Source of the DNA: Candidatus Campbellbacteria bacterium
GTDB lineage: Bacteria; Patescibacteriota; Minisyncoccia; Phycocordibacterales; UBA1006
NCBI GenBank assembly: GCA_002698305.1
Contig: NZWR01000004.1
Coordinates: 4,347-68,346 of the forward strand
Reading direction: 5' to 3'
DNA: 64,000 nt
Part shown: positions 8,943 to 61,543 of the stretch, piece after piece
How the letters are laid out: every line of letters starts with the position of its first letter
Numbering within the stretch: the stretch's first letter is position 1
Notes under the pieces: generated by a model
The model's database searches: none
Seen by the model: only the letters and a program-made list of their open reading frames with translations
What the model was told of the DNA's origin: nothing
Position numbers and translations under genes: made by a program

Positions 8943-9018
8943 ATAATTATGATAGATGACGTAACAAGTAATGCAACAAGATATTGATAATTAACGTATC
9001 TGCGCTAGTATCTGATAT

Positions 9019-9474
9019 ATGGATTACACTCTTATTGCACTTTTGGCACTCTGCCTTATCACGATAATTCTTATTATTATGATTATTAAGCTACACAAAC
9101 GTCTTGTAGCTTTTACTCGCGGAAACAACGGCTCATCCCTTGAAACAGTAATCACAGAGCTTCACAATACAACCAGTAAAGTTATTAATGATAATAAAAA
9201 ACAGCAACAAGCAATTAGCTCACTAACTAAAAAATCTGAAACAAGCTTGCGGGGTTTGGGAATCATTCGCTTTAATCCGTTTAAAGAAACTGGTGGAAAT
9301 CAAAGTTTTGCTCTTGCTCTTACTAATGAACGTGGTGATGGTGTTGTTATCTCGTCACTATACGCTCGTGAGCGATTGAACGTTTTTGCAAAACCTGTCG
9401 TGCGAGGAAGTTCCGAATATACGCTCAGCAATGAAGAACAGCAAGCATTATCAGAATCACTTAACTCAAACTAA
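9019..9474 (+). CDS. DUF4446-family membrane protein
   Basis: N-terminal TM helix, then IIRFNPFKETGGNQSFALALTNERGDGVVISSLYARE, the family signature as I recall it. Confidence 0.6.
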   Translation: MDYTLIALLALCLITIILIIMIIKLHKRLVAFTRGNNGSSLETVITELHNTTSKVINDNKKQQQAISSLTKKSETSLRGLGIIRFNPFKETGGNQSFALALTNERGDGVVISSLYARERLNVFAKPVVRGSSEYTLSNEEQQALSESLNSN

Positions 9475-9478
9475 CGCT

Positions 9479-10981
9479 ATGTCATCATCAGAAAATAATA
9501 TTATAGAACGCTCCCCTGTCGTTGCGATTATGGGTCACGTAGATCATGGTAAATCTACGCTATTAGACTACATCAGAAGCACCAATATTGTAGATGGCGA
9601 AGCTGGAGGAATCACCCAGCATATTTCAACCTACGAAGTCAGTCTCGATTCAGGGAAACGAATTACCTTTCTAGACACACCAGGTCATGCAGCCTTTGAT
9701 ACTATGCGTCACCGAGGTGGAACTATCGCTGATATCGCTATTTTAATTGTTTCAGCAGAAGACAGCGTAAAGAAACAAACTGAGCACGCAATAGAAGTAA
9801 TAAAAAAGAACAATATTCCATATATTGTTGCTATTAACAAAATTGATAAACCAAACGCAAACCCAGAAAAAGTTAAAACTGACCTTTTAGAGCACGGAAT
9901 TTATGTTGAAGGATATGGAGGTGATGTTCCGTTTAATCTTATCTCAGCAAAAAAAGGTGACGGAGTTGATGACCTTCTTGAATCACTCGTTCTTTTGTCA
10001 GAGCTTGAAGAATTCACAGGTGACACCAGGAAATTAGCAACGGGGTATGTTGTTGAATCCCATCGCGATCCTAAACAAGGAGTGTCAGCTACACTTGTTA
10101 TCAAAAACGGAAGCATCGGAAAGGGTCAATTTGTTGTCGTTGAAGATAGTATTACACCAACACGTATGCTTCAAGACTTTACCGGTAAAGCTATTGATGA
10201 GGCCCATTTTTCAACACCAATCACGCTTGTTGGATTTGATAAACTTCCTGCAGTAGGAAGCAGATTTAGTACCTTTGAAACTAAAAAAGATGCTGAAGAA
10301 GCAATAGCAGAATTTAAAGATATAGTAGCAGAAATCGAAGAGCAGCAGACCCTTCTTAACATTCCAGAAGGTGTTGCACTTATCCCAGTAATAATTAAAA
10401 CAGATGTAGCAGGTACCGGAGAAGCAATCCGAGAGCAAATTGAAGCCATGACGACAGATGATGTTATCTTTAAGGTTGTGAAGGTAGAAACTGGTGCTAT
10501 TAATGAGTCGGACGCCAAGCTTGCTCTTTCGGATCCGAACACTGTTATTGTAGGATTCCATGTTGATGAAGAAGCGGCTATTAAAAATCTGAACAATTAC
10601 GAAACACTCACCATTAAAACCTTTAATATTATTTACAAACTTACTGAGTGGTTTGAAGAATTGTACGAAGAACGTCGTATTAAAAAAGAAGTAGATACAG
10701 CTCTTGGTGAACTTAAGGTACTGAAAGTATTTTCATCTCAAAAAAATCAAACGCTCGTTGGTGGATCAGTTGCCTCAGGTACCCTTTCTAAAAAAGAATC
10801 ATGTAAAATTATTCGCAATAACGAACTGGTAGGAACAGGGACCGTCGTTGCTATCCAGCAAGGAAAAACAGCTGTTGATAAAATATCAGGTGCAGGAACT
10901 GAATGTGGAATAATGATAGAGAATGCTTCAGAAATTTTAGAAAAAGACCGTATTCAGACATTTGTAACTGAAGTTAAATAA
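9479..10981 (+). CDS. infB: Translation initiation factor IF-2 (short form)
   Basis: VVAIMGHVDHGKSTLLD, DTPGH, NKID. The start is placed at ATG 9479 (MSSSENNIIERSPV) because the track ORF start at 9386 overlaps the upstream gene by 89 nt. Confidence 0.93.
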   Translation: MSSSENNIIERSPVVAIMGHVDHGKSTLLDYIRSTNIVDGEAGGITQHISTYEVSLDSGKRITFLDTPGHAAFDTMRHRGGTIADIAILIVSAEDSVKKQTEHAIEVIKKNNIPYIVAINKIDKPNANPEKVKTDLLEHGIYVEGYGGDVPFNLISAKKGDGVDDLLESLVLLSELEEFTGDTRKLATGYVVESHRDPKQGVSATLVIKNGSIGKGQFVVVEDSITPTRMLQDFTGKAIDEAHFSTPITLVGFDKLPAVGSRFSTFETKKDAEEAIAEFKDIVAEIEEQQTLLNIPEGVALIPVIIKTDVAGTGEAIREQIEAMTTDDVIFKVVKVETGAINESDAKLALSDPNTVIVGFHVDEEAAIKNLNNYETLTIKTFNIIYKLTEWFEELYEERRIKKEVDTALGELKVLKVFSSQKNQTLVGGSVASGTLSKKESCKIIRNNELVGTGTVVAIQQGKTAVDKISGAGTECGIMIENASEILEKDRIQTFVTEVK

Positions 10982-10985
10982 CTAT

Positions 10986-11318
10986 ATGAAAGGAGACCGA
11001 CTGATAAAACTTAATAAGGAACTACAAAAAGCATTTGGTGCCTTCGTAGAGCGCGAATCAAACAAGGAGTCATTAATCACCGTAACTCGCTGTGACATTA
11101 GCCCGGACTTAAAAAACGTCATTGTATTTATCTCAGTATTTCCAGAAGATAAGGAGGATAGTGTCATTAAATTTCTAGAACGCAGAAAATGGGATGCCCG
11201 TGAGTATATTAAATCACGAATCACTACGCGAGTTATTCCATTTGTAGATTTTCAAATTGATTACGGTGACAAAAACAGACGTCATATTGATAGTCTTCTA
11301 AAAAAAGAAAATCTATAA
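10986..11318 (+). CDS. rbfA: Ribosome-binding factor A
   Basis: 110 aa, RLIKLNKELQKAFGAFVE..ITVTRCDISPDLKNVIVFISV. Follows infB, the conserved gene order. Confidence 0.85.
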   Translation: MKGDRLIKLNKELQKAFGAFVERESNKESLITVTRCDISPDLKNVIVFISVFPEDKEDSVIKFLERRKWDAREYIKSRITTRVIPFVDFQIDYGDKNRRHIDSLLKKENL

Positions 11319-11381
11319 CACCCTGATTTGTGAGCCGAGCTTTTGCATGATACTGTAGTAACAGCATATTCATGCGTTATT

Positions 11382-11453
11382 GGCGTGGTGGCGAAGTGGT
11401 AACGCTGCGGTCTGCAAAACCGCCATGCGCGGGTTCGAATCCCGCCCACGCCT
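11382..11453 (+). tRNA. tRNA-Cys (anticodon GCA)
   Basis: Acceptor GGCGTGG/CCACGCC, loop CTGCAAA, discriminator U73 (the Cys identity element). Confidence 0.9.
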
Positions 11454-11570
11454 CATATAAAAACCTTTTTAAGGTTTTTCCTTTATCTTTAAATGGGAAT
11501 GTTTCAAGGCTCAAAATCTAAACTTTTTTATATAAATTTTCTTTTTGGAAATCTATCGATGAGATACTTG

Positions 11571-11659
11571 TGGTGCCGAGAGCGGGGGTCGAACCCGCAC
11601 GCCAATAATTAGCAAGGGATTTTAAGTCCCTCGTGTCTACCAATTCCACCATCTCGGCA
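11571..11659 (-). tRNA. tRNA-Leu (anticodon TAA), CCA encoded
   Basis: The reverse complement folds with acceptor GCCGAGA/TCTCGGC, loop CTTAAAA, a long variable arm and a terminal ACCA. Confidence 0.9.
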
Positions 11660-11720
11660 TGATGATTATTATACACAGTTATCGTAAAACGAAAAATATG
11701 TAACGCTATTTTATAAATAA

Positions 11721-12009: not shown

Positions 12010-12369
12010 TTAGCCAACAGATAAATCTCCGCCTGCAAATAAGTTAAAGGTTCGCCCAATAACCTGAATAATTCCCCATAGAGATAAAATGATAAATAAC
12101 CCAAGAAGTCCAGAAATGATTTGTTGTTTTCTTCCCTCTTTTGTTTGTGAATCGCTTTCAAGAATATAGCGTGTAATTGATACAATCGTGAAGAATAATG
12201 CCAGTGATACAAGAATCGGGATCACCAAATCATTAATAAATTTAGTTGCTGAACTTGCGACAGTCGTCACATTGCTTGAATCAATTTGCGCGTAGACTTT
12301 GCGTGCTGCAAAAAACCATGTCGATATACCAATCACAGCAGTCTTCTTTTGTGTAAAAAATTTCTTCAT
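12010..12369 (-). CDS. VirB2/TrbC-like (T4SS-pilin-like) small membrane protein, paralog 1
   Basis: Signal peptide ending YAQ, TM1 (LVIPILVSLALFFTIV), polar loop ESDSQTKEGRKQ, TM2 (IISGLLGLFIILSLWGII). The start is taken at MKKFF, one nt after the upstream stop. Confidence 0.6.
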   Translation of the reverse strand: MKKFFTQKKTAVIGISTWFFAARKVYAQIDSSNVTTVASSATKFINDLVIPILVSLALFFTIVSITRYILESDSQTKEGRKQQIISGLLGLFIILSLWGIIQVIGRTFNLFAGGDLSVG

Positions 12370-12370
12370 A

Positions 12371-12715
12371 TTAATTAGTGAACAGTTGTGGTAGGAATAC
12401 GTTTGTTCCAAAGAAGCTTTGAGTTACCACAGACGTCAGACTCAGGTATGCGATCATTGCAAACAGTGCGATGATTCCCCACAACATGCGCTGCTTCCCT
12501 TTTTTGCGTTGTTCTGGGTTATCTGACCCTTGAATAAACATAACAACGCCAAATATAAACCACGCAAGAGCTGCAGACATCAATAGCGGTACTACAACAT
12601 CACTAATCTTTACTACCTCTCCTACAGCATTTCTAAAGGTCTGTGCGCTTGTTATAGCTGGTATGAAGGGAGATGAAACTGCAATAGTTTTTTTGTTTAA
12701 TAGATATTTCATCAT
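12371..12715 (-). CDS. VirB2/TrbC-like small membrane protein, paralog 2
   Basis: Signal peptide ending SAQ, TM1, loop GSDNPEQRKKGKQRMLWG, TM2. Confidence 0.6.
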   Translation of the reverse strand: MMKYLLNKKTIAVSSPFIPAITSAQTFRNAVGEVVKISDVVVPLLMSAALAWFIFGVVMFIQGSDNPEQRKKGKQRMLWGIIALFAMIAYLSLTSVVTQSFFGTNVFLPQLFTN

Positions 12716-12719
12716 ACGA

Positions 12720-13139
12720 CTACCCTGTTATGGCTGTTACCGTTGCAAAGATCCCTTGAGCAATCGCATACGCCCCAAGAAGAATAGCAGCTCCTACAAC
12801 AATATAGATTAATGTTTGTTTTGCTGATTTTAGCTTTTCAGAATTTCCTTGCGCAGCAACAAATTTAAAACCAGCATAAATTAATGCAATAACAATTAAC
12901 GGTACCGCAACAGTTAATACAATATCCATAAAGGTCTCAACTAGAGTTGGGATGTCATCGACATTGTTTAGTGGGTTGTTAAGTTTTTCTGAACTAGGAT
13001 TTGTTATTCCTCCCTGTGGTTCAGGATTTGTTATTCCTCCCTGTGGTTCAGGATTATCACCTTGCGCAAACAAACTTTCTGCACTAAAAAGGGCTAAAAA
13101 AATTAAAGATGGTGCTAAAAAATTTTTTACTTTTTCCAT
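12720..13139 (-). CDS. VirB2/TrbC-like small membrane protein, paralog 3 (with NPEPQGGIT repeat)
   Basis: Signal peptide ending FAQ, duplicated NPEPQGGIT, TM1, loop AAQGNSEKLKSAKQ, TM2. Confidence 0.6.
   Translation of the reverse strand: MEKVKNFLAPSLIFLALFSAESLFAQGDNPEPQGGITNPEPQGGITNPSSEKLNNPLNNVDDIPTLVETFMDIVLTVAVPLIVIALIYAGFKFVAAQGNSEKLKSAKQTLIYIVVGAAILLGAYAIAQGIFATVTAITG
12996..13055. repeat. 27-bp in-frame tandem repeat, 2.2 copies
   Basis: aggatttgttattcctccctgtggttc occurs twice perfectly, followed by a 6-nt partial copy. It encodes NPEPQGGIT x2 in paralog 3. Confidence 0.95.
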
Positions 13140-13244
13140 ATCATAATATTAACATAAAATACGCGTAATCTTTCATAAAAATATTGACATAAAATATATA
13201 TAATATATAATATAATTAAACATAACCTTAAAAATTTCAGAACC

Positions 13245-13625
13245 ATGGTAAGAAAAATATTAGTTGCTTTCTTTAGCATTGTATTAACCTTTTTCTTAAT
13301 TTGGCTTTTCCTTAAGCCATCTGAAAAAGAAATTCCTAAAAAACTGATTCAGGATAAAGAAGAAGTAATAAAGTTTTCATACAATGAAAACTTAACATCT
13401 GATTCAATATTAAAAATACCTGTTTTTTATACCTCATTTTACCAATCTTTTTCACCACGAGACGCAGTAAGCTGCGTTAAGGTAAGAAACGGTAGCCGAG
13501 GTAAATGGACTGGCGCAAATAAGTTTCAGTCAGCGAATGTAGATAGTAATGTCTACTATAAAATAATGTGTAACCACTTCGATCATGAAAACATTACTGT
13601 ACATGTTAGAAGTCAAAATAACTAA
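13245..13625 (+). CDS. Hypothetical membrane-anchored protein
   Basis: 126 aa with one N-terminal TM helix. No family recognised. Confidence 0.4.
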   Translation: MVRKILVAFFSIVLTFFLIWLFLKPSEKEIPKKLIQDKEEVIKFSYNENLTSDSILKIPVFYTSFYQSFSPRDAVSCVKVRNGSRGKWTGANKFQSANVDSNVYYKIMCNHFDHENITVHVRSQNN

Positions 13626-13628
13626 ATT

Positions 13629-14993
13629 ATGACAGTAGATAGAAAAAAAGTTGAAGGGCTTATAAAAGACCAAAAAGAATGTATAGAAATATTTGCCAAA
13701 GAAAAAGAACAAGAAGGTAAAGGTGTCTATGAAATTCATGATGACACACAATCCTTTTGGAACTCTGTAATGCTATATGCAGCCGCTTCATTTGCTGTGG
13801 TTGTGTTGCTCTACATCATTTCAGGATCCGATAAGAGTTTCTGGTTATGCTTTCTCATTGGGCCAATTCCAGGTTTAATCCTTGGTTTTCTTGATGCAGA
13901 AACAATTCCACGGAATCGACTTAAAACAATTTTTGACTATAAAAATCAAAAAGCAGTGTGTGTAGCCAAAGAGGGTTATCACCCAAGAAGATTTTTTACG
14001 ATTGCTGAGTCAGGAAATTATCCTGCTCAACCATTTTTTGTAAAAATTCCGCTCTCTGGTTTTATAACTAAAGATGAAGTTGAGATTACTAAGGGGCAGA
14101 TGGTTTTAACCGTCCAGCATATTAATCCTCTACTTTTTGAAGATCGGGGTTCAAATGCCAGTAGTTCAATGCTTTCGACCAACAAATCGGGAGTAAAGAG
14201 TAGTGATAGTGATGGTATAAATTTTGTACGAAACGAAGCACTAGATGCTGCTCAAAACTATATAGTTGAGCGAGATTATAAATTTATTGAAAAAGAATCA
14301 AAAAATCTCATAGGTTTATTCCTTAAAGATGAAGATTCTGACACTACTGACACAGTAGCGAAATTTAATGAATTTAAATACGAGATTAATTATGCAGGGA
14401 TGGTTGTACATAAAATCGATATCGTTGGACTTGATCCAGAGGAAGATTACAAAAAAGCACGTACTCAGCCAAAAAGAGAAAAATTAAAGGCAGAGTCAGT
14501 TGCAATTGAGACAGATAATTTACGGAAACTTGCAAATGATCAAGTACTGGAAGAAATAGTGAATCATCAACCAAATAGCTCGATCAAAGACGCACAAGAT
14601 TTCTTAGACGAAGCATATGAAAAAATCAAGGATGAACCCAAAATGAAAATTTATTTAGGGATAGCTGATGATGATGAAAAAAAGATGTATCCAGGTATTG
14701 AGAAATCTCTTGAAAAATTTGAACAAGAGCAGGTAAAAACTGCTATTCAGATTGCGTTAAGAACTGCAGTTCATGTTAAACCAGATGGTTCAACATATTC
14801 TGTTTCTGGAGGAGACGTGAGACATTGGAGAACTGAAGCTCTGAAAAATGTTAAAATTATCAATGGAAAAAGTGCTCAACGTTATAATGAGAACTCGTTT
14901 GATGGTGGTGAAAACATGGATCCAGCAGCCAAGGCTTATGCCATGGGACAAATTATGGCCGATAACGCCCGGGAAAGTAGCGCAAAAGATTAA
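13629..14993 (+). CDS. Hypothetical membrane protein, weakly SPFH/band-7-like
   Basis: 454 aa with two TM helices near residues 45-95. The stretch GMVVHKIDIVGLDPEEDYKKA..KLKAESVAIETDNLRKLA is reminiscent of the SPFH core plus the following helix. Assessed by eye only. Confidence 0.35.
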   Translation: MTVDRKKVEGLIKDQKECIEIFAKEKEQEGKGVYEIHDDTQSFWNSVMLYAAASFAVVVLLYIISGSDKSFWLCFLIGPIPGLILGFLDAETIPRNRLKTIFDYKNQKAVCVAKEGYHPRRFFTIAESGNYPAQPFFVKIPLSGFITKDEVEITKGQMVLTVQHINPLLFEDRGSNASSSMLSTNKSGVKSSDSDGINFVRNEALDAAQNYIVERDYKFIEKESKNLIGLFLKDEDSDTTDTVAKFNEFKYEINYAGMVVHKIDIVGLDPEEDYKKARTQPKREKLKAESVAIETDNLRKLANDQVLEEIVNHQPNSSIKDAQDFLDEAYEKIKDEPKMKIYLGIADDDEKKMYPGIEKSLEKFEQEQVKTAIQIALRTAVHVKPDGSTYSVSGGDVRHWRTEALKNVKIINGKSAQRYNENSFDGGENMDPAAKAYAMGQIMADNARESSAKD

Positions 14994-15047
14994 TACACCT
15001 TAAGGTATCACAAATATTTAATTGAATTTATTTTAATTAAATCATAC

Positions 15048-15077
15048 AAAGCCAGTTGCAATGCAACTGGCTTTTTT
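15048..15077 (+). terminator. Terminator of the 13245-14993 unit
   Basis: aaagccagttgc-aat-gcaactggcttt followed by a T-run. Confidence 0.7.
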
Positions 15078-15081
15078 ATTT

Positions 15082-15108
15082 AAAAAACAACATCCAAGAT
15101 GTTGTTTT
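15082..15108 (-). terminator. Terminator of the convergent minus-strand gene
   Basis: aaaacaacatc-caa-gatgttgtttt, with a T-run on the minus strand. Confidence 0.65.
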
Positions 15109-15118
15109 ATTAATAGTA

Positions 15119-15490
15119 CTATTGCCCAGGCCTGAGTCCAGAAAAATCAGCGGATTCATCTGGGTTAATACGGTCTAGACCCAAGGTTCCTCCAATGAAA
15201 TTCATAATACCGAATACCGATACCATAATAGCCATACCGATAATTCCCCACACCATATTACGCTTCCCTTTTTTAAGTGCCTCGTCTGAGCCACCATCAC
15301 CACTTTGTGCTTGGAAAAAATTAAACAAACCAACCAAGAATAAAATGATTGCAGCCGTAAACATTAAAATAATCAACGGGTTTAATAACTGTTCATTAAT
15401 CTTTCCCATAAGCGTTACCACCTCTTCTGGAGCCTGTGCGTGTGCAACAGGGATCGCGATATATTCTTTAATAAAAGACGAAATATTCAT
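15119..15490 (-). CDS. VirB2/TrbC-like small membrane protein, paralog 4
   Basis: Leader ending HAQ, TM1, loop AQSGDGGSDEALKKGKRNMVWG, TM2. Confidence 0.6.
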   Translation of the reverse strand: MNISSFIKEYIAIPVAHAQAPEEVVTLMGKINEQLLNPLIILMFTAAIILFLVGLFNFFQAQSGDGGSDEALKKGKRNMVWGIIGMAIMVSVFGIMNFIGGTLGLDRINPDESADFSGLRPGQ

Positions 15491-15543
15491 ATCACAACTA
15501 TACCATCTGGTGATGTATTTTTCTATACAACAAAAAAAACCTT

Positions 15544-15927
15544 TTATGAAAGGTTTTTTGTTTCAAAGGTATCTTCAAATGTATATTCAATACCTGGTAG
15601 GTATTGATTTTCAATCGTACCTCCATCAAGTCCAAATGTTCGTTGCACAACCCCAATCAGTCCGCGAACTGAAAAGATAACAATCAAACCGATAATTCCA
15701 TTGATAACAATTCTTCGAGCGTCACCCTTGGCATCTGAATCTTTAGCAGTAATGAATTTTACTACTCCGTAGATAAAGAAGAGCATTGCTGCACCAACCA
15801 AAATTGGTGTTGCAAGCTGAATTAGGTTTCCAATTGTCGCCAAAATAGACGTAGCGTCTTGAGCGTGTGCAAACATCGGTAATGATGCTGATACAAGTAA
15901 GGTTCCTTTTAATAGATGTTTTAGCAT
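15544..15927 (-). CDS. VirB2/TrbC-like small membrane protein, paralog 5
   Basis: Signal peptide ending HAQ, TM1, loop AKDSDAKGDARR, TM2. Confidence 0.6.
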   Translation of the reverse strand: MLKHLLKGTLLVSASLPMFAHAQDATSILATIGNLIQLATPILVGAAMLFFIYGVVKFITAKDSDAKGDARRIVINGIIGLIVIFSVRGLIGVVQRTFGLDGGTIENQYLPGIEYTFEDTFETKNLS

Positions 15928-16032
15928 GTTCTAAATATAATTATGTAAATAAATAATAGCTGCTTCATTGGATGCCCAAGAAGTTGAATATATTATACCA
16001 TCCTGTGGCGATTTTCGGCAAGACATTTAGTA

Positions 16033-17337: not shown

Positions 17338-17374
17338 ACCAACAGTATATCAAAAAAATGAGAAATAATTCTCA

Positions 17375-19244: not shown

Positions 19245-19298
19245 AGATTAATCTAAGTATATCAAACCTTTATACAAAAAAACACACGTGAGTGTGTT

Positions 19299-48486: not shown

Positions 48487-48546
48487 ATATCTCTATCGTA
48501 CCATAGACCCTTCACACGCTATACGATAACCGTTATAGTTATTCAT

Positions 48547-51892: not shown

Positions 51893-52090
51893 ACTTTTAG
51901 TATACCATGTGAAATGAGTGTGGTTACTTAATTACAAGAGGTTTACTGCTTACTACACCTCAAGAGTACTTGTAAAACATAATCGCTACTACTCTTTGTT
52001 TTTGAGCCCGCTTCCAGTATAAACTTGATGGAGTAGCCAAGGTCTCAAAAATATAAAAACCGAAACGCCTTGCGTTTCGGTTTGCAGTTG

Positions 52091-52316: not shown

Positions 52317-52382
52317 ATTACCAGTCATCCTACCATGCTCACTTGGCATTTCAACTGTTTAAAGTTTGCTATACTAAGCTAT

Positions 52383-52541
52383 ATGCCAGCAGATTCAGAA
52401 CAACAGCGCCGTGCAGCCGGTGCAGCATTATCAGCAAAACGTGATGACACCCGCGTATCAGACCTCAAAGGAGCCTCAAAAGAAATGTATGACTCAATGA
52501 CAGAAGAAGAATTGTCAGACATGGCTAGTAAAGATGAGTAA
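52383..52541 (+). CDS. DUF3008-family small protein
   Basis: MPADSEQQRRAAGAALSAKRDDTRVSDLKGASKEMYDSMTEEELSDMA. ATG 52383 lies 7 nt after a TATACT box. Confidence 0.6.
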   Translation: MPADSEQQRRAAGAALSAKRDDTRVSDLKGASKEMYDSMTEEELSDMASKDE

Positions 52542-52598
52542 TCATCTTTTTTATTTTAAAAATAAGAATAGAAAGTAAAAATAGTTTATACTGAGTAA

Positions 52599-52949
52599 AT
52601 GGCATATCAAAATAAAATTCTCATTATTGAACATGATGATTTTTTGCGAGAACTCATCGGAAACCTTCTACATAAAAAAGGTGGGTATATTTTAAATGGT
52701 CACACAATCAAACGCGGGATTCAAAATAGTCATAATCATGAAATTTCTACGATAATTCTTGGTAATAGCTGTCCATCATTTAAAGGAAAGCAGACGCTGC
52801 ATTATCTTAAAAAGGAATTAAACGCTCCCACGCTCGATATTTTTCTCCTTAATCATCACCCAAAGAGTGCTGATTATATTCCTGAAGACCATCAATTCAT
52901 GACTAATGAATTGTCAGTAAAAGAAATTCTAGATAGAATACCTGTCTAG
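52599..52949 (+). CDS. Receiver-like domain lacking the phospho-acceptor Asp (pseudo-receiver)
   Basis: 116 aa. KILIIEHDD is conserved, but the beta3 position reads TIILGNSCP instead of ..D..MP. Confidence 0.5.
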   Translation: MAYQNKILIIEHDDFLRELIGNLLHKKGGYILNGHTIKRGIQNSHNHEISTIILGNSCPSFKGKQTLHYLKKELNAPTLDIFLLNHHPKSADYIPEDHQFMTNELSVKEILDRIPV

Positions 52950-52976
52950 TTTTTTTATTTGGTATACTTCACGTAC

Positions 52977-55172
52977 GTGAAAAATCTCAATCTACAATCA
53001 GATATTGTTGGAAATTTCAGAACGACTGATACCCAAAAAAAGGCATTACAACGTCTTGGTATTAAAACGGTGCGTGATCTTTTGTACTACTTCCCTACCC
53101 GTTACAGCCATATGAGTGAAGTCACTACGATTGAAATGGCGACACCAGGAGAACTGGTTACTGTATACGGGATTATCAGTAATCCAAAAACTGGAAAAAC
53201 CTACACAACCAAGGTTCCAACTGCTAGCGCGACCTTAACTGACATCAACGGTGATACGATAAAAATTACATGGTTTAACCAAGCCTTCATTGCAAAAAAA
53301 ATACAAAACGGGGAGTCTGTAAAACTAACTGGAAAAATAACAGAATCCAAAGGCATGCGGACAATGGTTAACCCTGAATTTGAACAGGTGCCTAATATGC
53401 CGATTGATATTCATGACTCACTCTTCAAAAATCATGACACAGAAGTAGTAGCTTTTGGATATCCTATCTACCGCGAGTCGCGAGGCATCAGCAGCAAATG
53501 GATGTATCACACGATTATAAAAATAATGTCATCTGGGATGTTAGAACATCTTGAAGATCCACTGCCTGAATATTTGCTAAAAAAATACAGTCTCCCCTCT
53601 CTTCAAACAGCACTTGTTTGGATTCACGCACCAAAAAAACAACGCGATGCTGACGCAGCAAAAAAACGATTTGCTTTTGAAGAAATATTTTTTATTCAAT
53701 TACGTAACCAGCAAAGACGGGCGCGGCACAGAAAGGTTCATGCATATGATTTGGCAGTAGATGAAAATAAGACGCAGCGGTTCATGGATTCTTTTCCATT
53801 CACACCAACCGACGCGCAGGCATCAGCGATTGAATCAATTATTGCTGATATGACCAGTGATATACCTATGACACGGCTCCTTGAAGGGGATGTAGGTTCT
53901 GGTAAAACCTTTGTTGCAGCAGTCGCCGCTCACGCTGCTATTCAAAATAGACCAAAGAAAAAAACCGGTGGGAGCTATGATTTTGGGCGTATGCAGGTTG
54001 CTTATATGGCCCCGACGGAAGTATTAGCGACACAATTATTTGAAAATTTTGTTGAATATTTTGAAAATACCGGGATTCAAATTGGGCTTATGACCGGTGG
54101 TGGCTGCAGGAAATATCCATCAAAAGTTCCAGGTGAATCATGGACCACCATTTCAAAAAACCAATTACTTAAATGGGTGAAAAATGGTGAGGTGCCGATT
54201 GTTATCGGAACGCATGCTCTTATTCAAAAGAAAGTAGAATTCCAAGATTTAGCCCTGGTTATTATTGACGAACAACATAGGTTTGGGACCAAACAACGTA
54301 TGAAATTATCGAGTAAAGACAACCGACTCCCTCACTACTTATCAATGACAGCAACGCCCATTCCACGTACCCTTGCTCTAACTATCTACGGTGATCTTGA
54401 TTTATCAATCGTTGATCAAATGCCGTCAGGACGTAAACAGGTTATTACAGAAATCGTCCCACCCAAACCCGAGGCGCGTGATAAAGTCTACGTAGATATG
54501 CGGGAACGACTTGCGGAAGGACGCCAATGTTATGTTATTTGTCCGCGTATTGCAGAACCTGATCCAGAGAAAGAAAATGCTCTCCAATTAAAATCAGTTA
54601 CAGCTGAAGCCAAGCGGCTACAAACGACTGAGTTTAAAGACTACCGCGTAGATATCATGCACAGCAAAATGAAGAAAGCAGAGAAAGAAGCCGTCATGAA
54701 TCGATTCTACGCTCATGAAATTGATGTGCTTGTTTCTACCTCTGTAGTCGAGGTTGGAGTGAACGTTCCTAATGCAACCAGCATTATTATTGAAGGAGCC
54801 GAGCGATTCGGGCTTGCCCAACTTCATCAATTGCGTGGGCGTGTTATTAGATCAAACCATCAAGCTTATTGTTATCTCTTTGCTGATGCTAAATCAGAAA
54901 AAACAATTGATCGATTAAACGCGATCGTGGAAGCAAAAAATGGATTTGAACTTGCAGAAATTGACCTCTCTCTGCGTGGGGCTGGAGACCTTGCAGGACA
55001 AAAACAATGGGGCATGTCAGACCTTGCCATGGAAGCCATTAAAAATATCAAAATGGTTGAATATGCCAGAGACGAAGCAAAAAATATTATTGAACATGAT
55101 GAAGCGCTAGAAAGCTATCCCGAGTTGAAACAAATCATTGATCAAGACATCTACCACATTCATTTTGAATAA
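52977..55172 (+). CDS. recG: ATP-dependent DNA helicase RecG
   Basis: Wedge domain plus helicase motifs GDVGSGKT, DEQHRFG and QLRGRV. The track ORF starts at TTG 52959. A TATACT box at 52963-52968 favours GTG 52977. Confidence 0.92.
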   Translation: MKNLNLQSDIVGNFRTTDTQKKALQRLGIKTVRDLLYYFPTRYSHMSEVTTIEMATPGELVTVYGIISNPKTGKTYTTKVPTASATLTDINGDTIKITWFNQAFIAKKIQNGESVKLTGKITESKGMRTMVNPEFEQVPNMPIDIHDSLFKNHDTEVVAFGYPIYRESRGISSKWMYHTIIKIMSSGMLEHLEDPLPEYLLKKYSLPSLQTALVWIHAPKKQRDADAAKKRFAFEEIFFIQLRNQQRRARHRKVHAYDLAVDENKTQRFMDSFPFTPTDAQASAIESIIADMTSDIPMTRLLEGDVGSGKTFVAAVAAHAAIQNRPKKKTGGSYDFGRMQVAYMAPTEVLATQLFENFVEYFENTGIQIGLMTGGGCRKYPSKVPGESWTTISKNQLLKWVKNGEVPIVIGTHALIQKKVEFQDLALVIIDEQHRFGTKQRMKLSSKDNRLPHYLSMTATPIPRTLALTIYGDLDLSIVDQMPSGRKQVITEIVPPKPEARDKVYVDMRERLAEGRQCYVICPRIAEPDPEKENALQLKSVTAEAKRLQTTEFKDYRVDIMHSKMKKAEKEAVMNRFYAHEIDVLVSTSVVEVGVNVPNATSIIIEGAERFGLAQLHQLRGRVIRSNHQAYCYLFADAKSEKTIDRLNAIVEAKNGFELAEIDLSLRGAGDLAGQKQWGMSDLAMEAIKNIKMVEYARDEAKNIIEHDEALESYPELKQIIDQDIYHIHFE

Positions 55173-55178: not shown

Positions 55179-55730
55179 TTACACAAGGTCTTTTAGTTTG
55201 TGAAGTTTCTCTTTAAAAACATGTATCATTGTTTTATTGTCAAAATACCTTTCAAAGTTGACTAGAGAATTTTCAAAATATTGCGTATAGCCTTTTCTGT
55301 CAAAAGTTTTCCATACGTCAGCTGTATTTGAATCATTAATGAGACTCATCATGTTATGAATCCTATCTGCGCACATAACGGTTAATGATTTTTGAGACGC
55401 GTGCTCCATCTTACCTAGATATAATTCTTTTCTGCGTTTTTTGTCTGTTATTGATTTATCTTCACTGCATTCAAGTACTATTTTGATCACCTCAGCACCA
55501 AACGTTTCTTCGATAACGTCTGCAGAATACTCAGGTTTATATACATCTTCAACTACATCATGAAACAAAGCTGCTATAAGAGTAGCCTCGTCCTGTGCAA
55601 ACTCAGAACAGATTAATGCTACAGAAAAAGGGTGTGAGATATATGGAGTTCCCGTGTTCTTCCGCAGCTGACTATCATGAGCACGAGCAGCAAAATTTAC
55701 TGCCTCATACATTTTTGGTGTAAAAATCAT
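55179..55730 (-). CDS. HD-domain (p)ppGpp hydrolase-like protein (small alarmone hydrolase type)
   Basis: 183 aa, AHDSQLRKNTGTPYISHPFSVA..ALFHDVVEDV. Confidence 0.7.
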   Translation of the reverse strand: MIFTPKMYEAVNFAARAHDSQLRKNTGTPYISHPFSVALICSEFAQDEATLIAALFHDVVEDVYKPEYSADVIEETFGAEVIKIVLECSEDKSITDKKRRKELYLGKMEHASQKSLTVMCADRIHNMMSLINDSNTADVWKTFDRKGYTQYFENSLVNFERYFDNKTMIHVFKEKLHKLKDLV

Positions 55731-55889
55731 GCCAGCAGTATAACAAAACTGATGTGATTAAGAAATTTACTAGATTTTTATAACATAACTGAGCAGATAA
55801 ATAAAATAATTAAAAAACCTTTGTTTTTGATTACAAAGGTTTTTAAAAAATAAACTGCATCAATTGATAATTATGTGCTCGTTGAGGAT

Positions 55890-56942
55890 TTAAGGTGTAG
55901 TAACTGATTCTAAAGAATCTTCCACAATTAAATCAGATTCATCGGCTTCGCGCTTTGCTTCTTCTCGAGTATCGACAATTTCATCTGTTTCATCGACAAT
56001 TTCACCTACCAATTGCTCAAGCACGTCTTCAAGTGTTACCAAACCACTCGTTCCCTCAAATTCATCTTTCACAATGGCGATATGTTCACGTCTTTTGAGA
56101 AATAGCTGCAACAAATCATCCACGCGCATATTTTCACCAACATAGAGTACGTCATGCATAAAAGATTTAATGGTTCGATTATCTTCATCTTTTGCTAAAG
56201 CAATCAATAAATCTCGGCGATAACACAACCCTAAAATATCATCATAATCTTCTCCATACACAGGAAGCCGTGAATTTGTTAATTCAAAAATCTCGTCACG
56301 AGCATCGGTAAGCGTTGCGTCTACCTGGAATCCAACCATCATCCTACGAGGGGTCATAATGTCACGTGCCGTTATATCATTCAACGTGAAAACTCTTTGA
56401 ATAAGATCACGCTCATCTTCTTCGATACTTCCCTCAAGGTGCCCAAGTTCAGATAACATATGTAACTCCTCTTCTGATACTACTTTTCTAATAACACTGA
56501 ATCGTTTGGTTAATTGTTCAAGTAGCCATACCAAGGGTGAAAATATTTTAATAGCTACAGTAAGAGGTCTCGACACAAGGAGCCCTATTTTTTCCGAATT
56601 ATTTTCACCAATTGTTTTTGGCAAAATTTCACCAAAAATAATAATGAAGAAAGTAAGCAGTGCAGAAACAATACCAATCATTGCATCACCTAAGATATTG
56701 GTTGCAACTACCCCAACAAAAATAGAACCAACAATATTTACAATATTATTAGCAATAACAATTACAATAATAGCTTTTTGTGGATTTTCTTTTATGTCAG
56801 CGAGTGCTGCTGCTCCTGTTTTATTTTGCTCTTTTAAAAGAAGAACTCGTGAATGCGGTACCGAGAAAAGTGCCGCCTCAATTCCTGAAAATAGTCCTGA
56901 ACCGATAACAACTGCCAGTGCAAGTAAAATAAGTGTAGTCAT
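55890..56942 (-). CDS. CNNM/hemolysin-family transporter (DUF21 + CBS pair)
   Basis: 350 aa. N-terminal 4-TM DUF21 domain followed by two CBS repeats. No CorC_HlyC tail. Confidence 0.75.
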   Translation of the reverse strand: MTTLILLALAVVIGSGLFSGIEAALFSVPHSRVLLLKEQNKTGAAALADIKENPQKAIIVIVIANNIVNIVGSIFVGVVATNILGDAMIGIVSALLTFFIIIFGEILPKTIGENNSEKIGLLVSRPLTVAIKIFSPLVWLLEQLTKRFSVIRKVVSEEELHMLSELGHLEGSIEEDERDLIQRVFTLNDITARDIMTPRRMMVGFQVDATLTDARDEIFELTNSRLPVYGEDYDDILGLCYRRDLLIALAKDEDNRTIKSFMHDVLYVGENMRVDDLLQLFLKRREHIAIVKDEFEGTSGLVTLEDVLEQLVGEIVDETDEIVDTREEAKREADESDLIVEDSLESVTTP

Positions 56943-57018
56943 GATTATAGTTTAAAGTATACATAGAATTTTATTTTTGGTAACAAAAAACCCACTTTAG
57001 CGGGTTTTTTATGTGGGA

Positions 57019-57219: not shown

Positions 57220-57410
57220 TGTATTTTAGAAATTATTTCGAATAAACTTCAAACACCAGGTAAAACGAAATACTTCTTTCTACAAACTATTTGATACCTT
57301 GTATACTACGTCAAGGCTGTTCTAAGTCAAGGAACATCTGGGTAAAAACAGCACATTGAAAAAATCTTTAAGTCCGCTATTCTATATACGAGCACAACCA
57401 TGTGCCATCA

Positions 57411-57484
57411 TGCGCCTATAGCTCAATTGGCTAGAGCGCCGAGCTTATTCCTCGGATGTTGGGGGTTCGAGTCCCTCTGGGCGT
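57411..57484 (+). tRNA. tRNA with anticodon TAT (nominally Ile) and a non-canonical anticodon loop
   Basis: Acceptor GCGCCTA/TGGGCGT (G1:U72 wobble), perfect stem CCGAG/CTCGG, loop CTTATTC (U37, C38), T-arm GGGGG-TTCGAGT-CCCTC. Confidence 0.6.
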
Positions 57485-57551
57485 ACTAAAAATTTTAGAA
57501 CATAACGCGTTGCGTTATGTTCTTTAATTTTCTACGCCCAGAGGGACTCGA
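57465..57551. repeat. 87-nt near-perfect palindrome built on the 3' end of the tRNA(UAU)
   Basis: The 20-nt ttcgagtccctctgggcgta (57465-57484) recurs as a perfect inverted copy at 57532-57551. The centre is a 12-bp hairpin at 57496-57522. Confidence 0.9.
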
Positions 57552-57804: not shown

Positions 57805-59748
57805 CTACGCGGTCTTTTCTTCTTTTATTTTTGGTAATTCTTTTAGAGCTATACCATGCTTGGTCAATATTTCGTTATATTCTTTTTGTTCGAGTGTTTC
57901 TACTTTGATTAACGTTTCTGCAATCTCTACAAATGCATCATGGTATTCATTCAACACTTCTCGAGCTCGATTGAGACCTCTTTGAATAATCTTTGAAACT
58001 TCTGCATCAATCGTTTCAAGCATCTTTTCGCTACGATGATTACCTTCTACGCGATTACCAAACATTGTTTGTGCTGGTTTTCCGTCAACAACGATTGGAC
58101 CTATTTCAGATAACATTCCAAATTTCATCACCATATCACGAGCCGTTGCTGATACCACCTTCAAATCATTAGATGGACCTGTTGAGATATCACCATAGAT
58201 TTTTTCTTCTGCCGCGTATCCACCAAGCCCCATAGCAATATCATCCTCATAGGCTGATTTTGTTGGGAGTTTACGCTCATCAAGCGGCAGCTTCATGGTA
58301 AACCCTCCTGCTTTTGCTCGTGGAATAATAGTTACTTTGTGCACCGGATCAGCATCAGGTAATACCGATGCAACAATGGCGTGCCCTGCTTCGTGATAGG
58401 CTGTTTTCTTCTTCTCTTTTTCTCCTGCAAGGTGTGACTGGCGTTTTGGACCAATCATTACTTTTTCAAGCGCTTCAAGAAGGTCATCTTGATTAATAGT
58501 TTTTCTATCATGCAGTGCTGCAATAATTGCTCCTTCATTCATTAATGACTCTAGGTCAGCTCCAGAAAATCCAGCGGTTCGTTCAGCAATCGTTGTTAAA
58601 TTAACTGCATCAGCCAAAGGTTTTTTAGCTGCATGGATCTCTAGAATCTTTTTTCTATCGCGCCGGTCTGGTAAATCAAGCGTTACCCTTCGGTCAAAGC
58701 GACCAGGGCGCAGCAGTGCTGGATCAAGAACATCAGACCGATTGGTTGCTGCCATAACGATTAATTTTTCATTAGCCTCAAATCCATCCATTTCAACAAG
58801 GATTTGATTCAAGGTCTGTTCACGTTCATCGTTTCCCCCTCCGATTCCAACACCACGTGATCGTCCTACCGCATCAATTTCGTCAATAAAGATAATGGCT
58901 GGCGACATTTTTTTTGCCATCTTGAATAAATCACGCACACGTGATGCACCAACCCCAACAAACATTTCGACAAAATCTGAACCAGATAGGTAGAAAAATG
59001 GGACTTTTGCTTCACCAGCAACTGCTCGGGCCAGCATAGTCTTTCCTGTTCCTGGTCGCCCTGTCATTAATACTCCTTTTGGAATTTTTGCCCCCATTGA
59101 AATAAATTTCTTTGGGTTTTTCAAAAACTCAACCATTTCTTCGAGCTCTTTTTTGGCTTCTCTATTTCCAGCAACGTCCTTAAATGTAACGCGTTTTGCC
59201 TTGTTGTTTGGTAAAATGACGCGGGCTTTTGAGTTTCCAAAATTCATGGCCTTTCCATTCGTACCTTTTACCTGGCGCATAAAGAACCAAATAATAAAGA
59301 TAAGTCCTGCAAGTGGTAGCAAAAATGGAGCAAGTTGACCAAACCAATATCCAAACCCTGACGGCTCATCAATCTCAATATCTACTGTCTGCAAAGCCTC
59401 ATTGGTAACCCCATAGTTCACCAAAGACTCTGACAAAGCTGTGCCTACTTCTTTTTTAGATTCTTTAATAATTGGCTCTTGCCCTTCTTCTGCTGTTAAG
59501 GTAATTTCAAGATTTTCTCCTTTGACAAGTATTTTTTCAACCTGCCCTTCTGCAACAAGCATTGCTGTTTCAGAAATACTGATATTTATATCGTCATCTT
59601 GCGGTGCAAATGAATCAATCAATAAACTAAAAGCGAAAAAAATAATCAGACCCAACAATATCTGCATCGACAGATTTGGTCGTTGGTTTTTTCCTTTGGA
59701 TTTCTTCTTTTTTTTATTATTTCCAATTGGTTGTAATGGTAGTTTCAT
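57805..59748 (-). CDS. ftsH: ATP-dependent zinc metalloprotease FtsH
   Basis: Two N-terminal TM helices, AAA module [17 protein letters not shown] and zinc site HEAGHAI. The start is at ATG 59748, 7 nt after a TATAAT box. The track ORF extends to 59787. Confidence 0.95.
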
Positions 59749-59823
59749 AGTTTCGATTATAGCTATTCCCTGTGTACGTGCAATCAATATGGATGATGTT
59801 ATTAGTTTAGGTATACTACGAAT

Positions 59824-60267
59824 ATGAATTTACTCGTGAATAAAACCTTACGGCAAAAATATGAAGTGCTTGATACCTATGAATCGGGAATAAAACTCTC
59901 TGGCTGGGAGGTTAAAAGCTTGCGGCAAAAGCATGGCTCACTGAAAGAAGCCTATATTTCAGTTGATGCTGAGGTTTGGTTAAAAAACTGTTTTATTCCA
60001 ATATACCAACCTGGACACAAAGACCATGAAGGTCTTGATCCATATCAGCAAAGAAAATTGTTACTGAAGAATAAGGAAATTGAAAAAATATATGCACAGC
60101 AAAAACAACAAGGTCTCACTGTTGTACCTGTCCGCATCTATGAAAAAGAAAATCTTATTAAAATAGAAATTGCTGTAGCACGAGGGAAAAAATTGTATGA
60201 TAAGCGTAAAGATATGAGGGATAGAACAAGCAAAAGAGACGCCGAGCGAGCTGCAAAGAACTTTTGA
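59824..60267 (+). CDS. smpB: SsrA-binding protein SmpB
   Basis: 147 aa, YETGIKLSGWEVKSLR..IAVARGKKLYDKR. Confidence 0.92.
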   Translation: MNLLVNKTLRQKYEVLDTYESGIKLSGWEVKSLRQKHGSLKEAYISVDAEVWLKNCFIPIYQPGHKDHEGLDPYQQRKLLLKNKEIEKIYAQQKQQGLTVVPVRIYEKENLIKIEIAVARGKKLYDKRKDMRDRTSKRDAERAAKNF

Positions 60268-60286: not shown

Positions 60287-60314
60287 TTGACATATTAATT
60301 TTGAAGTGTATATT
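60287..60314 (+). promoter_or_regulatory. Strong sigma70-like promoter with no obvious gene
   Basis: TTGACA (60287-60292), 16 nt, TATATT (60309-60314). The next terminator is at 60446-60477. Confidence 0.45.
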
Positions 60315-60445
60315 TATGTTAATTCATTCACATATTGTTTATGAAGGAGGGTAATTCCTCAAAAAATAAAATAACTTAAATATCAGGAAATGAAAAAATA
60401 CCTGAGATCAAAATTTAACATCAAAAAGATCCCGAATTAAGGATT

Positions 60446-60477
60446 AAAACCATGTCTACACAACATGGTTTTATTTT
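60446..60477 (+). terminator. Rho-independent terminator
   Basis: aaccatgt-ctacaca-acatggtt followed by ttatttt. Confidence 0.6.
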
Positions 60478-60502
60478 ATATGAATGATTGCGTAGCTCCT
60501 TT

Positions 60503-60650
60503 AAACAGTTCTCAAAAAATTAACAAGTCTTGCAGCTATTTTTTATGCATCACGATGATATGTAGTTCTCCTTAACCTACCTCGACTACGCTCGAAGAGG
60601 TCTCAGACAGTCCGCAGGCCATACTTTATTCTCTTGTATGGTATTTTTAT
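60503..60650 (+). other. Possible decayed partial copy of the ssrA upstream/5' region, ending in a terminator
   Basis: AAACAGTTCTCAAAAAATT (60503-60521) matches AAACAATTCTCAAGAATT (60728-60745). Loosely collinear blocks ACAAGTCTTGCAGCTA, GTAGTTCTCCTTAAC and a hairpin follow. There is a terminator hairpin at 60619-60648. Confidence 0.3.
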
Positions 60651-60751
60651 TTGAGTATCATATATTACATAGCTCGCTCTGCCTGCTTCGCTGTCGCTCA
60701 GATTGGCAGTTACAGGCAACCGCGCTCAAACAATTCTCAAGAATTGTTTTC

Positions 60752-61130
60752 GGGGATGACAGGCTTCGCTAAGAAGATTGTTGTTCCTTAATTGCATATC
60801 GTGATTGACGCGATCACGTTAAACAGTGTCACTCCTTAAATGGAAAATCAATTGCTTCACCCTACAAGGTGAACACTCTAGCAATCGCGTAACAAACCTC
60901 GCGGCTAGTGCACCCTACCCTAATGTTCATACGGGGTAATGGTGTATCATAACCTTTGAACTAGATAGATAGAGCTTTCTCCTCTATCCACTCGAAGTAC
61001 AGAAGAATCGAGTAACTATCGCTTTTGTTTATCTTTTAGATAACTTGCTCTAAATAAATTAAGGTAGACTATATATGTAGACGTTAAGGGATTTCCTTTT
61101 TACACGGCGGTTCGATTCCGCCCATCTCCA
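60752..61130 (+). ncRNA. ssrA: tmRNA (SsrA), one-piece
   Basis: The 5' GGGGATG pairs with the 3' CATCTCC, including G3:U70. T-arm GGCGG-TTCGATT-CCGCC, discriminator A. The internal tag frame ends ..NTLAIA-TAA (stop 60890-60892). Adjacent to smpB. Confidence 0.85.
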
Positions 61131-61137
61131 CATCGGG

Positions 61138-61164
61138 AGAGCCATCTTCGGATGGTTCTTTTTT
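61138..61164 (+). terminator. Terminator after ssrA
   Basis: agagccatc-ttcg-gatggttct followed by a T-run. Confidence 0.7.
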
Positions 61165-61180
61165 AAGTTATACTATATAT

Positions 61181-61543
61181 ATGAAAAATTTTTTGAAAAA
61201 ATATTGGCCGTATATTATCATTGCAATTATTCTACTTCAGACATTGAGGTATAAATTTACTGCTCACCCTGAATCAGTCGCATTATTTACAGAACTATCC
61301 CTCTTTGGACAATCTGAAGCATATGGAAGAATTGGATCTGGTATCGTAGAACTTCTCGTAGCTATTGGCCTCTTTATTAGGCCATTGCGTCAGATTTCTC
61401 TCCTTGGTGTTGTTACTTTGATGGGTGGTGCATTATATTTCCATATTACAAAACTTGGATTTGAAGGAAACAACTTACCTCTTGCAATCTCAGCTGGAGT
61501 AGCATTAGTTTTAGCAACATATACATTGGCGCGTAAAAAATAG
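61181..61543 (+). CDS. DoxX-like membrane protein
   Basis: 120 aa with about 4 TM helices. LRYKFTAHPESVALFTEL..GRIGSGIVELLVAIGL. Confidence 0.5.
   Translation: MKNFLKKYWPYIIIAIILLQTLRYKFTAHPESVALFTELSLFGQSEAYGRIGSGIVELLVAIGLFIRPLRQISLLGVVTLMGGALYFHITKLGFEGNNLPLAISAGVALVLATYTLARKK

Follow-up and report, generated by a model that had tools for sequence, protein, structure and literature searches.

What marks the start of a gene for the ribosome where the usual pairing sequence is missing? The question is raised by a 64,000-nucleotide (nt) stretch of contig NZWR01000004.1 (assembly GCA_002698305.1, Candidatus Campbellbacteria bacterium), the whole of which we call the window. A preliminary description of it had noted TATACT-type hexamers a few nt upstream of start codons, together with a lack of Shine-Dalgarno (SD) motifs, and had proposed that leaderless mRNAs are pervasive in this organism. 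Our in silico analyses support that proposal, with box enrichment, motif discovery, promoter signatures, and SD absence all favorable to it. We consider it highly probable, as far as DNA sequence can tell, that -10 or extended -10 promoter boxes abutting the start codons give rise to leaderless mRNAs in about two thirds of the transcription units, without SD sequences.

The window and the start sets

The organism is, judging by the names carried by its RecG homologues, a bacterium of the candidate phyla radiation (Patescibacteria, here CPR), of the Parcubacteria/Paceibacteria type; homologues at 61 to 84% identity are named Candidatus Pacebacteria, Minisyncoccia, and Patescibacteria group. The identical sequence is also found in Tara Oceans assemblies (marine metagenome), in NCBI assembly GCA_002291735.1, and within a 133-kb contig of marine metagenomic origin (ENA ERZ829075 NODE_1471344), whose positions minus 4346 give those of the window. 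The window has a GC content of ~37.5% and contains 12 tRNA genes, one transfer-messenger RNA (tmRNA) gene, and no rRNA genes.

Two sets of starts were used. For the motif-blind set, open reading frames (ORFs) were chosen by a crude codon-usage score and the start of the longest ORF was taken, giving 66 starts, with 2,188 other ATGs as controls. The curated set comprises 68 protein genes, and the motif was taken into account in picking some of their starts; being motif-blind, the longest-ORF statistic escapes the circularity of these starts. Throughout, a box is TANNNT and a spacer is the number of nt between the end of the box and the start codon.

A box at a fixed distance from first genes

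The 13 hexamer-start pairs originally reported are all present where they were placed, eight of them as TATACT and five as variants (TATAAT, TATAGT, TAGTAT, and TAAAAT twice), with spacers of 6 nt in six cases, 7 nt in five, and 8 nt in two. TATACT shows no overall excess in the window (40 copies versus 35 ± 6 in shuffles); of the 40 copies, 20 lie in intergenic DNA and 14 end 6 to 8 nt before a gene start. What is non-random about the motif is its placement, not its abundance.

The positional enrichment relative to control ATGs is pronounced. TANNNT occurs at a spacer of exactly 6 nt before 17 of the 66 longest-ORF starts (26%), compared with 2.0% of controls (binomial P = 1.4e-14), and at spacers of 5 to 8 nt pooled it precedes 28 of 62 starts, compared with 9.2% of controls (P = 1e-13). 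Unbiased 5-mer discovery in positions -20 to -1 returned ATACT as the top word (13 occurrences versus 0.9 expected), followed by TATAC and ATAAT, and no SD-like word. It might be argued that AT-rich intergenic DNA and starts fitted to the motif would generate such a pattern by themselves, and the lack of any overall TATACT excess, the revision of some starts with the motif in mind, and a generic promoter scan at chance level (described below) would be in keeping with this. The motif-blind starts, however, show one sharp peak, with only ~2 TANNNT per offset at the remaining offsets (12 to 40 nt) of the same upstream regions, ~8-fold below the peak at 6 nt; the peak is missing from Firmicutes loci with the same GC or less; and orthologous conservation and independent start-codon checks agree with the box. 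Having been tested and not supported, an artefact of this kind is scarcely credible.

In the curated set, 31 of the 68 genes (~46%) have a box at 5 to 8 nt, 24 are tightly coupled genes without a box, and 13 belong to neither group. Of the 42 genes outside tight couplings, 29 (69% of first genes) have the box, compared with 2 of the 26 coupled genes (Fisher P = 4e-7). The word "pervasive" in the preliminary description thus amounts to ~69% of first genes, or 46% when every gene is counted; the others are coupled or leadered and likewise without SD sequences. At the 31 sites, the hexamer is TATACT in 14, TATAAT in 4, TATAGT in 2, TAAAAT in 2, and a single variant in the others; the start codon is ATG at 29 of the 31 box-bearing genes and at 66 of all 68. 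Starts with a nearby box, including three with a spacer outside 5 to 8 nt, are as follows, each given with its box (any TGn extension in lower case), spacer, and start codon; "new" marks clear cases absent from the list in the preliminary description, and aa stands for amino acids.

1412 to 1430 (+): miaA (IPPT; gene 1419-2366); TATACT 1412-1417, 1 nt to ATG 1419 and 10 nt to ATG 1428
4730 to 4745 (-): 132-aa ORF; tga-TATAAT, 7 nt, ATG 4732
8940 to 8954 (-): aminotransferase class V; TATCAT (weak), 6 nt, ATG 8942
9006 to 9021 (+): DUF4446; TAGTAT 9006-9011, 7 nt, ATG 9019
13137 to 13151 (-): TrbC/T4SS-pilin-like; tgt-TAATAT, 6 nt, ATG 13139
15488 to 15502 (-): 123-aa ORF; tgg-TATAGT, 6 nt, ATG 15490
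15925 to 15939 (-): T4SS-pilin-like; TATATT, 6 nt, ATG 15927
17335 to 17349 (-): 434-aa T4SS-pilin-domain protein; tga-TATACT, 6 nt, ATG 17337; new
19242 to 19261 (-): methyltransferase; tga-TATACT 19256-19261, 11 nt, ATG 19244; predicted leader of ~4-5 nt
22732 to 22746 (-): MBL-fold hydrolase; tga-TATACT 22741-22746, 6 nt, ATG 22734
25012 to 25027 (-): peptidyl-tRNA hydrolase (pth); TATACT, 7 nt, ATG 25014; new
26974 to 26988 (-): PG_binding_1 protein; tgg-TATACT, 6 nt, ATG 26976; new
27040 to 27054 (+): secG, divergent from the gene at 26976; TATTGT (weak), 6 nt, ATG 27052
31403 to 31417 (-): 166-aa ORF, with an internal promoter within the gatA 3' end; tgc-TATACT, 6 nt, ATG 31405; new
33072 to 33087 (-): gatC; TATACT 33082-33087, 7 nt, ATG 33074
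38908 to 38922 (-): pilin-like (N_methyl); tgg-TATAAT, 6 nt, ATG 38910; new
40816 to 40830 (-): T2SSF/PilC (pilC), its promoter 7 nt past the preceding gene; tga-TATAAT, 6 nt, ATG 40818; new
46535 to 46549 (-): pilM; tgg-TATACT 46544-46549, 6 nt, ATG 46537
46567 to 46583 (+): comF-like, 43 nt from divergent pilM; tgg-TAAAAT 46567-46572, 8 nt, ATG 46581; TATACT at 6 nt in relatives
48484 to 48500 (-): MscS channel; tgg-TACGAT, 8 nt, ATG 48486
48534 to 48549 (+): DUF389; TATAGT 48534-48539, 7 nt, ATG 48547
51890 to 51904 (-): 455-aa Ig-like-domain protein; tgg-TATACT, 6 nt, GTG 51892; new
52370 to 52385 (+): DUF3008; tgc-TATACT 52370-52375, 7 nt, ATG 52383
52587 to 52601 (+): receiver-like 116-aa protein; TATACT 52587-52592, 6 nt, ATG 52599; box and spacing kept in three relatives
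52929 to 52979 (+): recG; terminator hairpin 52929-52949 and T-run, then tgg-TATACT 52963-52968, 8 nt, GTG 52977
55728 to 55742 (-): HD-domain protein; tgt-TATACT, 6 nt, ATG 55730; new
56940 to 56961 (-): CNNM; TATACT 56956-56961, 13 nt, ATG 56942; TATACT at 11 nt in relatives; short leader predicted
59746 to 59795 (-): ftsH; -35-like TTGCAC, 16 nt, TATAAT 59756-59761, 7 nt, ATG 59748
59812 to 59826 (+): smpB; TATACT 59812-59817, 6 nt, ATG 59824; kept in three relatives
61169 to 61183 (+): weak DoxX-like protein; TATACT 61169-61174, entered by the tmRNA terminator T-run, 6 nt, ATG 61181
61643 to 61658 (+): weak DoxX-like protein 2; TAAAAT 61643-61648, 7 nt, ATG 61656

Several genes of the remaining group, namely, clpB, a SPOUT methylase gene, CNNM, and a methyltransferase gene, have a box at 9 to 13 nt, and leaders of 2 to 6 nt are therefore predicted for them. 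The truly leadered genes are a cold-shock gene, the genes for ribosomal proteins S1 and L33, and the major pilin gene, which has tgcTATAAT 68 nt upstream.

Starts without Shine-Dalgarno sequences

SD sequences are absent from the starts of the window, as the preliminary description had held on a smaller sample. AGGAG precedes none of the 66 longest-ORF starts, and the cores GGAG, GAGG, and AGGA, scored at -18 to -4, are found at 5% of starts versus 7% of controls. Pairing with an anti-SD oligonucleotide is in fact weaker at starts (mean duplex energy, -1.07 kcal/mol) than at control ATGs (-1.73 kcal/mol). At the curated starts, no SD core lies less than 15 nt from the start of a coupled or leadered gene; the few copies of GGAGG are all at least 17 nt away, and the L33, S1, and cold-shock genes are no exception. 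This negative is not a failure of the method, because the identical pipeline recovers SD sequences in Streptococcus, Mammaliicoccus, and Furfurilactobacillus loci, where they occur at 35 to 83% of genes and AGGAG is the top 5-mer. In the wider survey described below, genes without a box have stop-codon k-mers in A-rich, G-poor upstream regions, where the enrichment of SD cores is just 1.3- to 1.6-fold.

A signature search for 16S and 23S rRNA returned nothing usable in the window or in 88 loci. Tsurumaki et al. 2022 (PMC9297842) detected the anti-SD motif (CCTCCT) in just 48% of the 16S genes of Parcubacteria, and the anti-SD loss reported for Parcubacteria may plausibly be linked to the SD absence in this genome.

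The preliminary description also held that internal operon genes are joined by overlaps of 1 to 23 nt. This is true of a minority: 7 of the 26 tight junctions (those of the 24 coupled genes without a box and of the 2 with one) overlap, by -1 to -23, and the other 19 have gaps of 1 to 13 nt. Over junction distances of -23 to +13 nt, downstream genes of operons would most likely be translated by termination-reinitiation or by 70S scanning without SD sequences, and the leadered minority would begin translation on A-rich, G-poor leaders, also independently of SD sequences.

The starts share one further feature, which lies outside the promoter model. Position -1 is T at 61 to 82% of window starts and G at 0 of 62, whereas control ATGs have T there in 21% of cases and G in 27%, and this start-context signal is alike in box-bearing and other genes. 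A pyrimidine at -1, tried as a signature of transcription start, was rejected for want of discrimination (86% of box-bearing versus 88% of other genes).

The box as a promoter element

The hexamers are, from their sequence features, sigma-70-type -10 promoter elements and not ribosome sites, because they are confined to first genes, have sigma-70 features, precede tRNA genes, leave conserved footprints, and fit within highly compacted intergenic regions. A TGn extension precedes 16 of the 31 boxes of the window. When start-proximal boxes of the window and of CPR loci are pooled (n = 237), TATAAT (38) and TATACT (31) lead, for a consensus of TATAAT/TATACT; TGn is present in 34% of them and in 7.6% of control boxes, positions -35/-34 are enriched in T, and TTG occurs at 16 to 18 nt in 14% versus 7.6% of controls, which indicates a weak -35. 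The pooled spacers are 6 nt in 123 cases, 7 nt in 55, 8 nt in 37, and 5 nt in 22.

The box is also found at genes that are never translated. Among 10 tRNA units, 7 have TANNNT 9 to 11 nt upstream of the mature 5' end (P = 5e-7), those with 5' ends at 3848, 11658, 11935, 30456, 30544, 30873, and 52177. This spacing would predict tRNA 5' leaders of ~2 to 4 nt, and one may ask how far such precursors depend on RNase P processing.

Conservation and spacing are equally informative. Comparison with three relatives (L089, L090, and L091, with RecG 84%, 79%, and 72% identical) shows that recG, ftsH, smpB, the receiver-like gene, comF, and pilM keep TATAAT/TATACT and its 6- to 8-nt spacing amid diverged flanks; at ftsH, a TTGCCn -35 at 16 nt is kept in all four genomes. 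Divergent gene pairs are separated by 43 nt (pilM/comF), 60 nt, and 75 to 76 nt and thus have no space for 5' untranslated regions (UTRs) or promoters further upstream. Terminator T-runs lead directly into the next box at recG (52929-52968) and at the DoxX-like gene after tmRNA, and terminator, promoter, and start codon fit within ~45 nt. Terminator-like sites are themselves enriched in the 44- to 64-kb part of the window (20 versus 11.6 ± 3.0).

These features bear on the idea that the TATA-like motif is a non-SD ribosome-binding or translation-enhancer element on mRNAs that start further upstream, in the style of group B of the GeneMarkS-2 classification (Bacteroidota). With SD sequences absent, another signal could be expected, and A/T-rich upstream regions are found at all genes. 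A ribosome motif, however, should precede all genes, internal ones included (PMC6028130), whereas TANNNT hardly occurs beyond first genes, being found in just 2 of 26 operon-internal ones; nor would such a motif be expected to carry a TGn extension and a -35, to precede tRNA genes, or to occupy divergent regions of 43 to 76 nt that are too short for promoters upstream of it. We regard this explanation as very improbable.

Probable leaderless transcripts and possible very short leaders

If the boxes are promoters, RNA polymerase starting ~7 nt after the -10 would begin the transcript at or within 1 to 2 nt of the A of the ATG, and the dominant 6-nt spacer would make that A the usual start position. 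About two thirds of the transcription units would in this way be made as leaderless mRNAs, whose 5'-terminal AUG may be bound directly by the ribosome and initiator tRNA, presumably by the 70S/leaderless route and without SD pairing. The leaderless step draws on the established -10-to-start distance and on the validation of a like signature in other phyla by differential RNA sequencing (dRNA-seq): a Pribnow box 6 to 8 nt from gene starts is an accepted leaderless signature, which dRNA-seq has validated in both Mycobacterium and Deinococcus (PMC6028130).

Several observations weigh against so simple a picture. At the control rate of 9.2%, chance alone would supply ~4 of the 31 sites; the box is weak in several cases (TATCAT, TATTAT, TAGATT, and TAAACT); and some of the curated starts were selected with the motif in view. 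A generic scan for -35 plus -10 over 44 to 64 kb gave 68 sites versus 64.8 ± 8.8 in shuffles, which is chance level, and the promoter calls therefore depend solely on the -10 and TGn, these being -10/extended -10 promoters with a weak -35. Spacers of 7 to 8 nt and the 9- to 13-nt cases (clpB, SPOUT, CNNM, and the methyltransferase) imply some leaders of 1 to 6 nt. That the transcripts would be strictly leaderless, rather than carrying a leader of 1 to 3 nt, is read from the usual -10-to-start distance.

This last point leads to the closest alternative, in which the promoters are real and transcription starts 1 to 5 nt before the AUG, so that very short leaders contribute to initiation. Spacers of 7 and 8 nt account for 92 of the 237 pooled sites, the 9- to 13-nt cases are clear (CNNM keeps a spacing of 11 to 13 nt in relatives), the tRNA boxes at 9 to 11 nt indicate that short leaders do occur, and all starts show a strong preference for T at -1. 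The dominant spacer is nevertheless exactly 6 nt (123/237), which puts the canonical start on the A of the ATG, and phyla with a like signature have mapped 5' ends that fall on the start codon (PMC6028130). The alternative also barely differs in function from leaderless initiation. We judge it unlikely as the general rule and retain leaderless mRNA as the preferred explanation.

Start codons revised by the box

The preliminary description had used the box to choose start codons for five genes. Homologue lengths bear out the choice for recG, ftsH, and DUF389, and for secG it coincides with the public call (ATG 27052). Most of the RecG homologues listed are 731 aa long or nearly so, and where the window has GTG 52977, the aligned codon of three relatives is ATG, with TATAAT/TATACT at 6 to 7 nt from it. 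FtsH read from ATG 59748 has 647 aa, and the 636 to 644 aa of its relatives fit this start, so that the public start at TTG 59787 (660 aa) was rejected. The DUF389 protein has 249 aa from ATG 48547, and its longest ORF of 309 aa was set aside in view of relatives of 243 to 245 aa. At miaA, ATG 1428 with a 3- to 4-nt leader is a plausible candidate start.

Two further genes were compared with the public annotation. For DUF4446, only ATG 9019 allows coverage of positions 3 to 149 of the 150-position Pfam model; the public start at ATG 9079 removes 20 residues and leaves the domain incomplete. The public call for a pilus ATPase starts two codons downstream of the 572-aa form. The public starts of ftsH and DUF4446 appear to be wrong, with the box-bearing starts fitting instead.

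Distribution across the candidate phyla radiation

To the extent sampled, the layout is widespread. A RecG alignment scan of GTDB species genomes supplied 80 loci, in which the 6-nt peak, measured blind to the motif, is present at 16.4% of 397 genes in Paceibacteria-like loci and at 15.2% of 269 genes in other CPR loci, compared with ~1.7% of controls; outside the CPR it falls to 3.2% in Firmicutes loci and 4.2% in other non-CPR loci. Of the 38 CPR loci containing 10 genes or more, 28 have a clear box excess and 4 a clear SD excess. Because the signature recurs in most of the CPR loci sampled, we take it to be a lineage trait.

SD use is clear, at 29 to 60% of starts, in CPR loci L010, L061, L062, and L077. 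A few CPR branches still use SD sequences, and SD loss is uneven across the radiation. Across the 38 CPR loci, at ~15 genes each, the anticorrelation between -10 excess and SD excess was not significant (rho = -0.14, P = 0.40).

A broader proposition, which we offer tentatively and hold to be somewhat less than an even chance, is that much of the CPR works without SD pairing, with leaderless mRNAs from extended -10 promoters as the default and reinitiation downstream, the anti-SD having been lost in at least the Paceibacteria-like branch, and with tRNA genes perhaps following the same plan (2- to 4-nt leaders). If true, the CPR would be the largest bacterial group with essentially 70S/leaderless initiation, and the reported anti-SD loss and reduced ribosome of the CPR would have a functional explanation.

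Other features of the window

Two clusters of genes for surface apparatus are each split into several predicted leaderless units. One is a TrbC/T4SS-pilin-like set at 12010 to 17337, and the second, at 35100 to 46537, is a cluster for type IV pili with pilM, a pilO-like gene, two T2SSE ATPase genes, pilC, a prepilin peptidase gene, and several N_methyl pilin genes. Intergenic TATACT copies at 57302-57307 (+), 22844-22849 (-), and 52016-52021 (-) have no start codon 5 to 8 nt downstream; these orphans lie 104 to 123 nt upstream of the tRNA-Ile gene or of genes with a start-proximal box of their own, and they could be tandem promoters or belong to small RNAs.

The best consensus promoter of the 44- to 64-kb region (TTGACA, 16 nt, TATATT) is at 60287 to 60314 (+), between smpB and the tmRNA gene. 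A candidate transcript of ~150 nt lies there (60287-60480, +), ended by a terminator-like hairpin at 60445 to 60473; it contains AAGGAGG despite belonging to a genome without SD use, has a fold z-score of -3.05, and has no Rfam match. The tRNA-Ile gene at 57412 to 57486 (+) has the anticodon UAU according to ARAGORN. Bacteria normally read AUA via a lysidine-modified CAU tRNA, and a UAU tRNA-Ile is unusual.

Implications

Start calls in CPR metagenomes would be biased if the gene caller expects a ribosome-binding site, and a rule based on the -10 box mends ftsH and DUF4446. The layout, which fits extreme genome compaction, is also a candidate answer to the question of what replaces SD sequences in a group where half of the 16S genes are reported to be without the anti-SD motif. 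Leaderless initiation is often discussed as ancestral, and a deep and very large bacterial radiation relying on it would be a useful point of comparison. For cultivated CPR bacteria, expression cassettes might be built from an extended -10, 6 nt, and an ATG, with no ribosome-binding site.

In the literature searched, from which subscription journals were mostly outside, so that this is not proof of absence, we found no description of leaderless mRNAs in CPR, Patescibacteria, Saccharibacteria, or Parcubacteria. Neither transcription starts nor UTRs are discussed in a TM7x transcriptome preprint, and a 2025 promoter survey lists 188 RNA-seq-derived transcription starts for Nanosynbacter lyticus, in which we found no statement on leader length.

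Comparison with known systems

A leaderless default combined with an SD-free remainder calls to mind Haloferax volcanii and other haloarchaea, in which most transcripts are leaderless and initiation on leadered mRNAs is SD independent. Those organisms use archaeal TATA/BRE elements ~22 to 26 nt upstream and archaeal initiation factors, whereas the elements here are bacterial -10/extended -10 boxes. Group B (Bacteroidota) is similar in its near absence of SD use and its A-rich start regions but differs in that its motif precedes all genes, internal ones included, on leadered mRNAs, while here the motif marks first genes and has promoter features. The Parcubacteria subgroup studied by rRNA analysis (PMC9297842) is alike in its broad clade, and its anti-SD rarity fits the SD absence seen here; that study, however, examined rRNA and not mRNA start regions and did not address leaderless mRNAs or what replaces SD sequences.

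The nearest counterpart is group C of GeneMarkS-2, in which a Pribnow box lies 6 to 8 nt before the starts of first genes and 25 to 50% of transcripts are predicted to be leaderless; it is common among Actinobacteria, at 90% of genomes, and Deinococcus-Thermus, at 97% (PMC6028130). The window resembles group C as known from Mycobacterium tuberculosis and Deinococcus-Thermus in having a -10 box 6 to 8 nt before first genes, the starts of group C being mostly AUG or GUG. It differs in several respects: the other genes of group C use SD sequences, whereas internal and leadered genes here do without them; the first-gene fraction of ~69% is at the high end, and the local consensus favors TATACT; and the lineage is CPR/Patescibacteria, which the text of PMC6028130 does not mention. 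A group C-type layout is thus well known in other phyla, although we found it described for the CPR nowhere in the literature searched, and the absence of SD sequences at the remaining genes is unusual for it.

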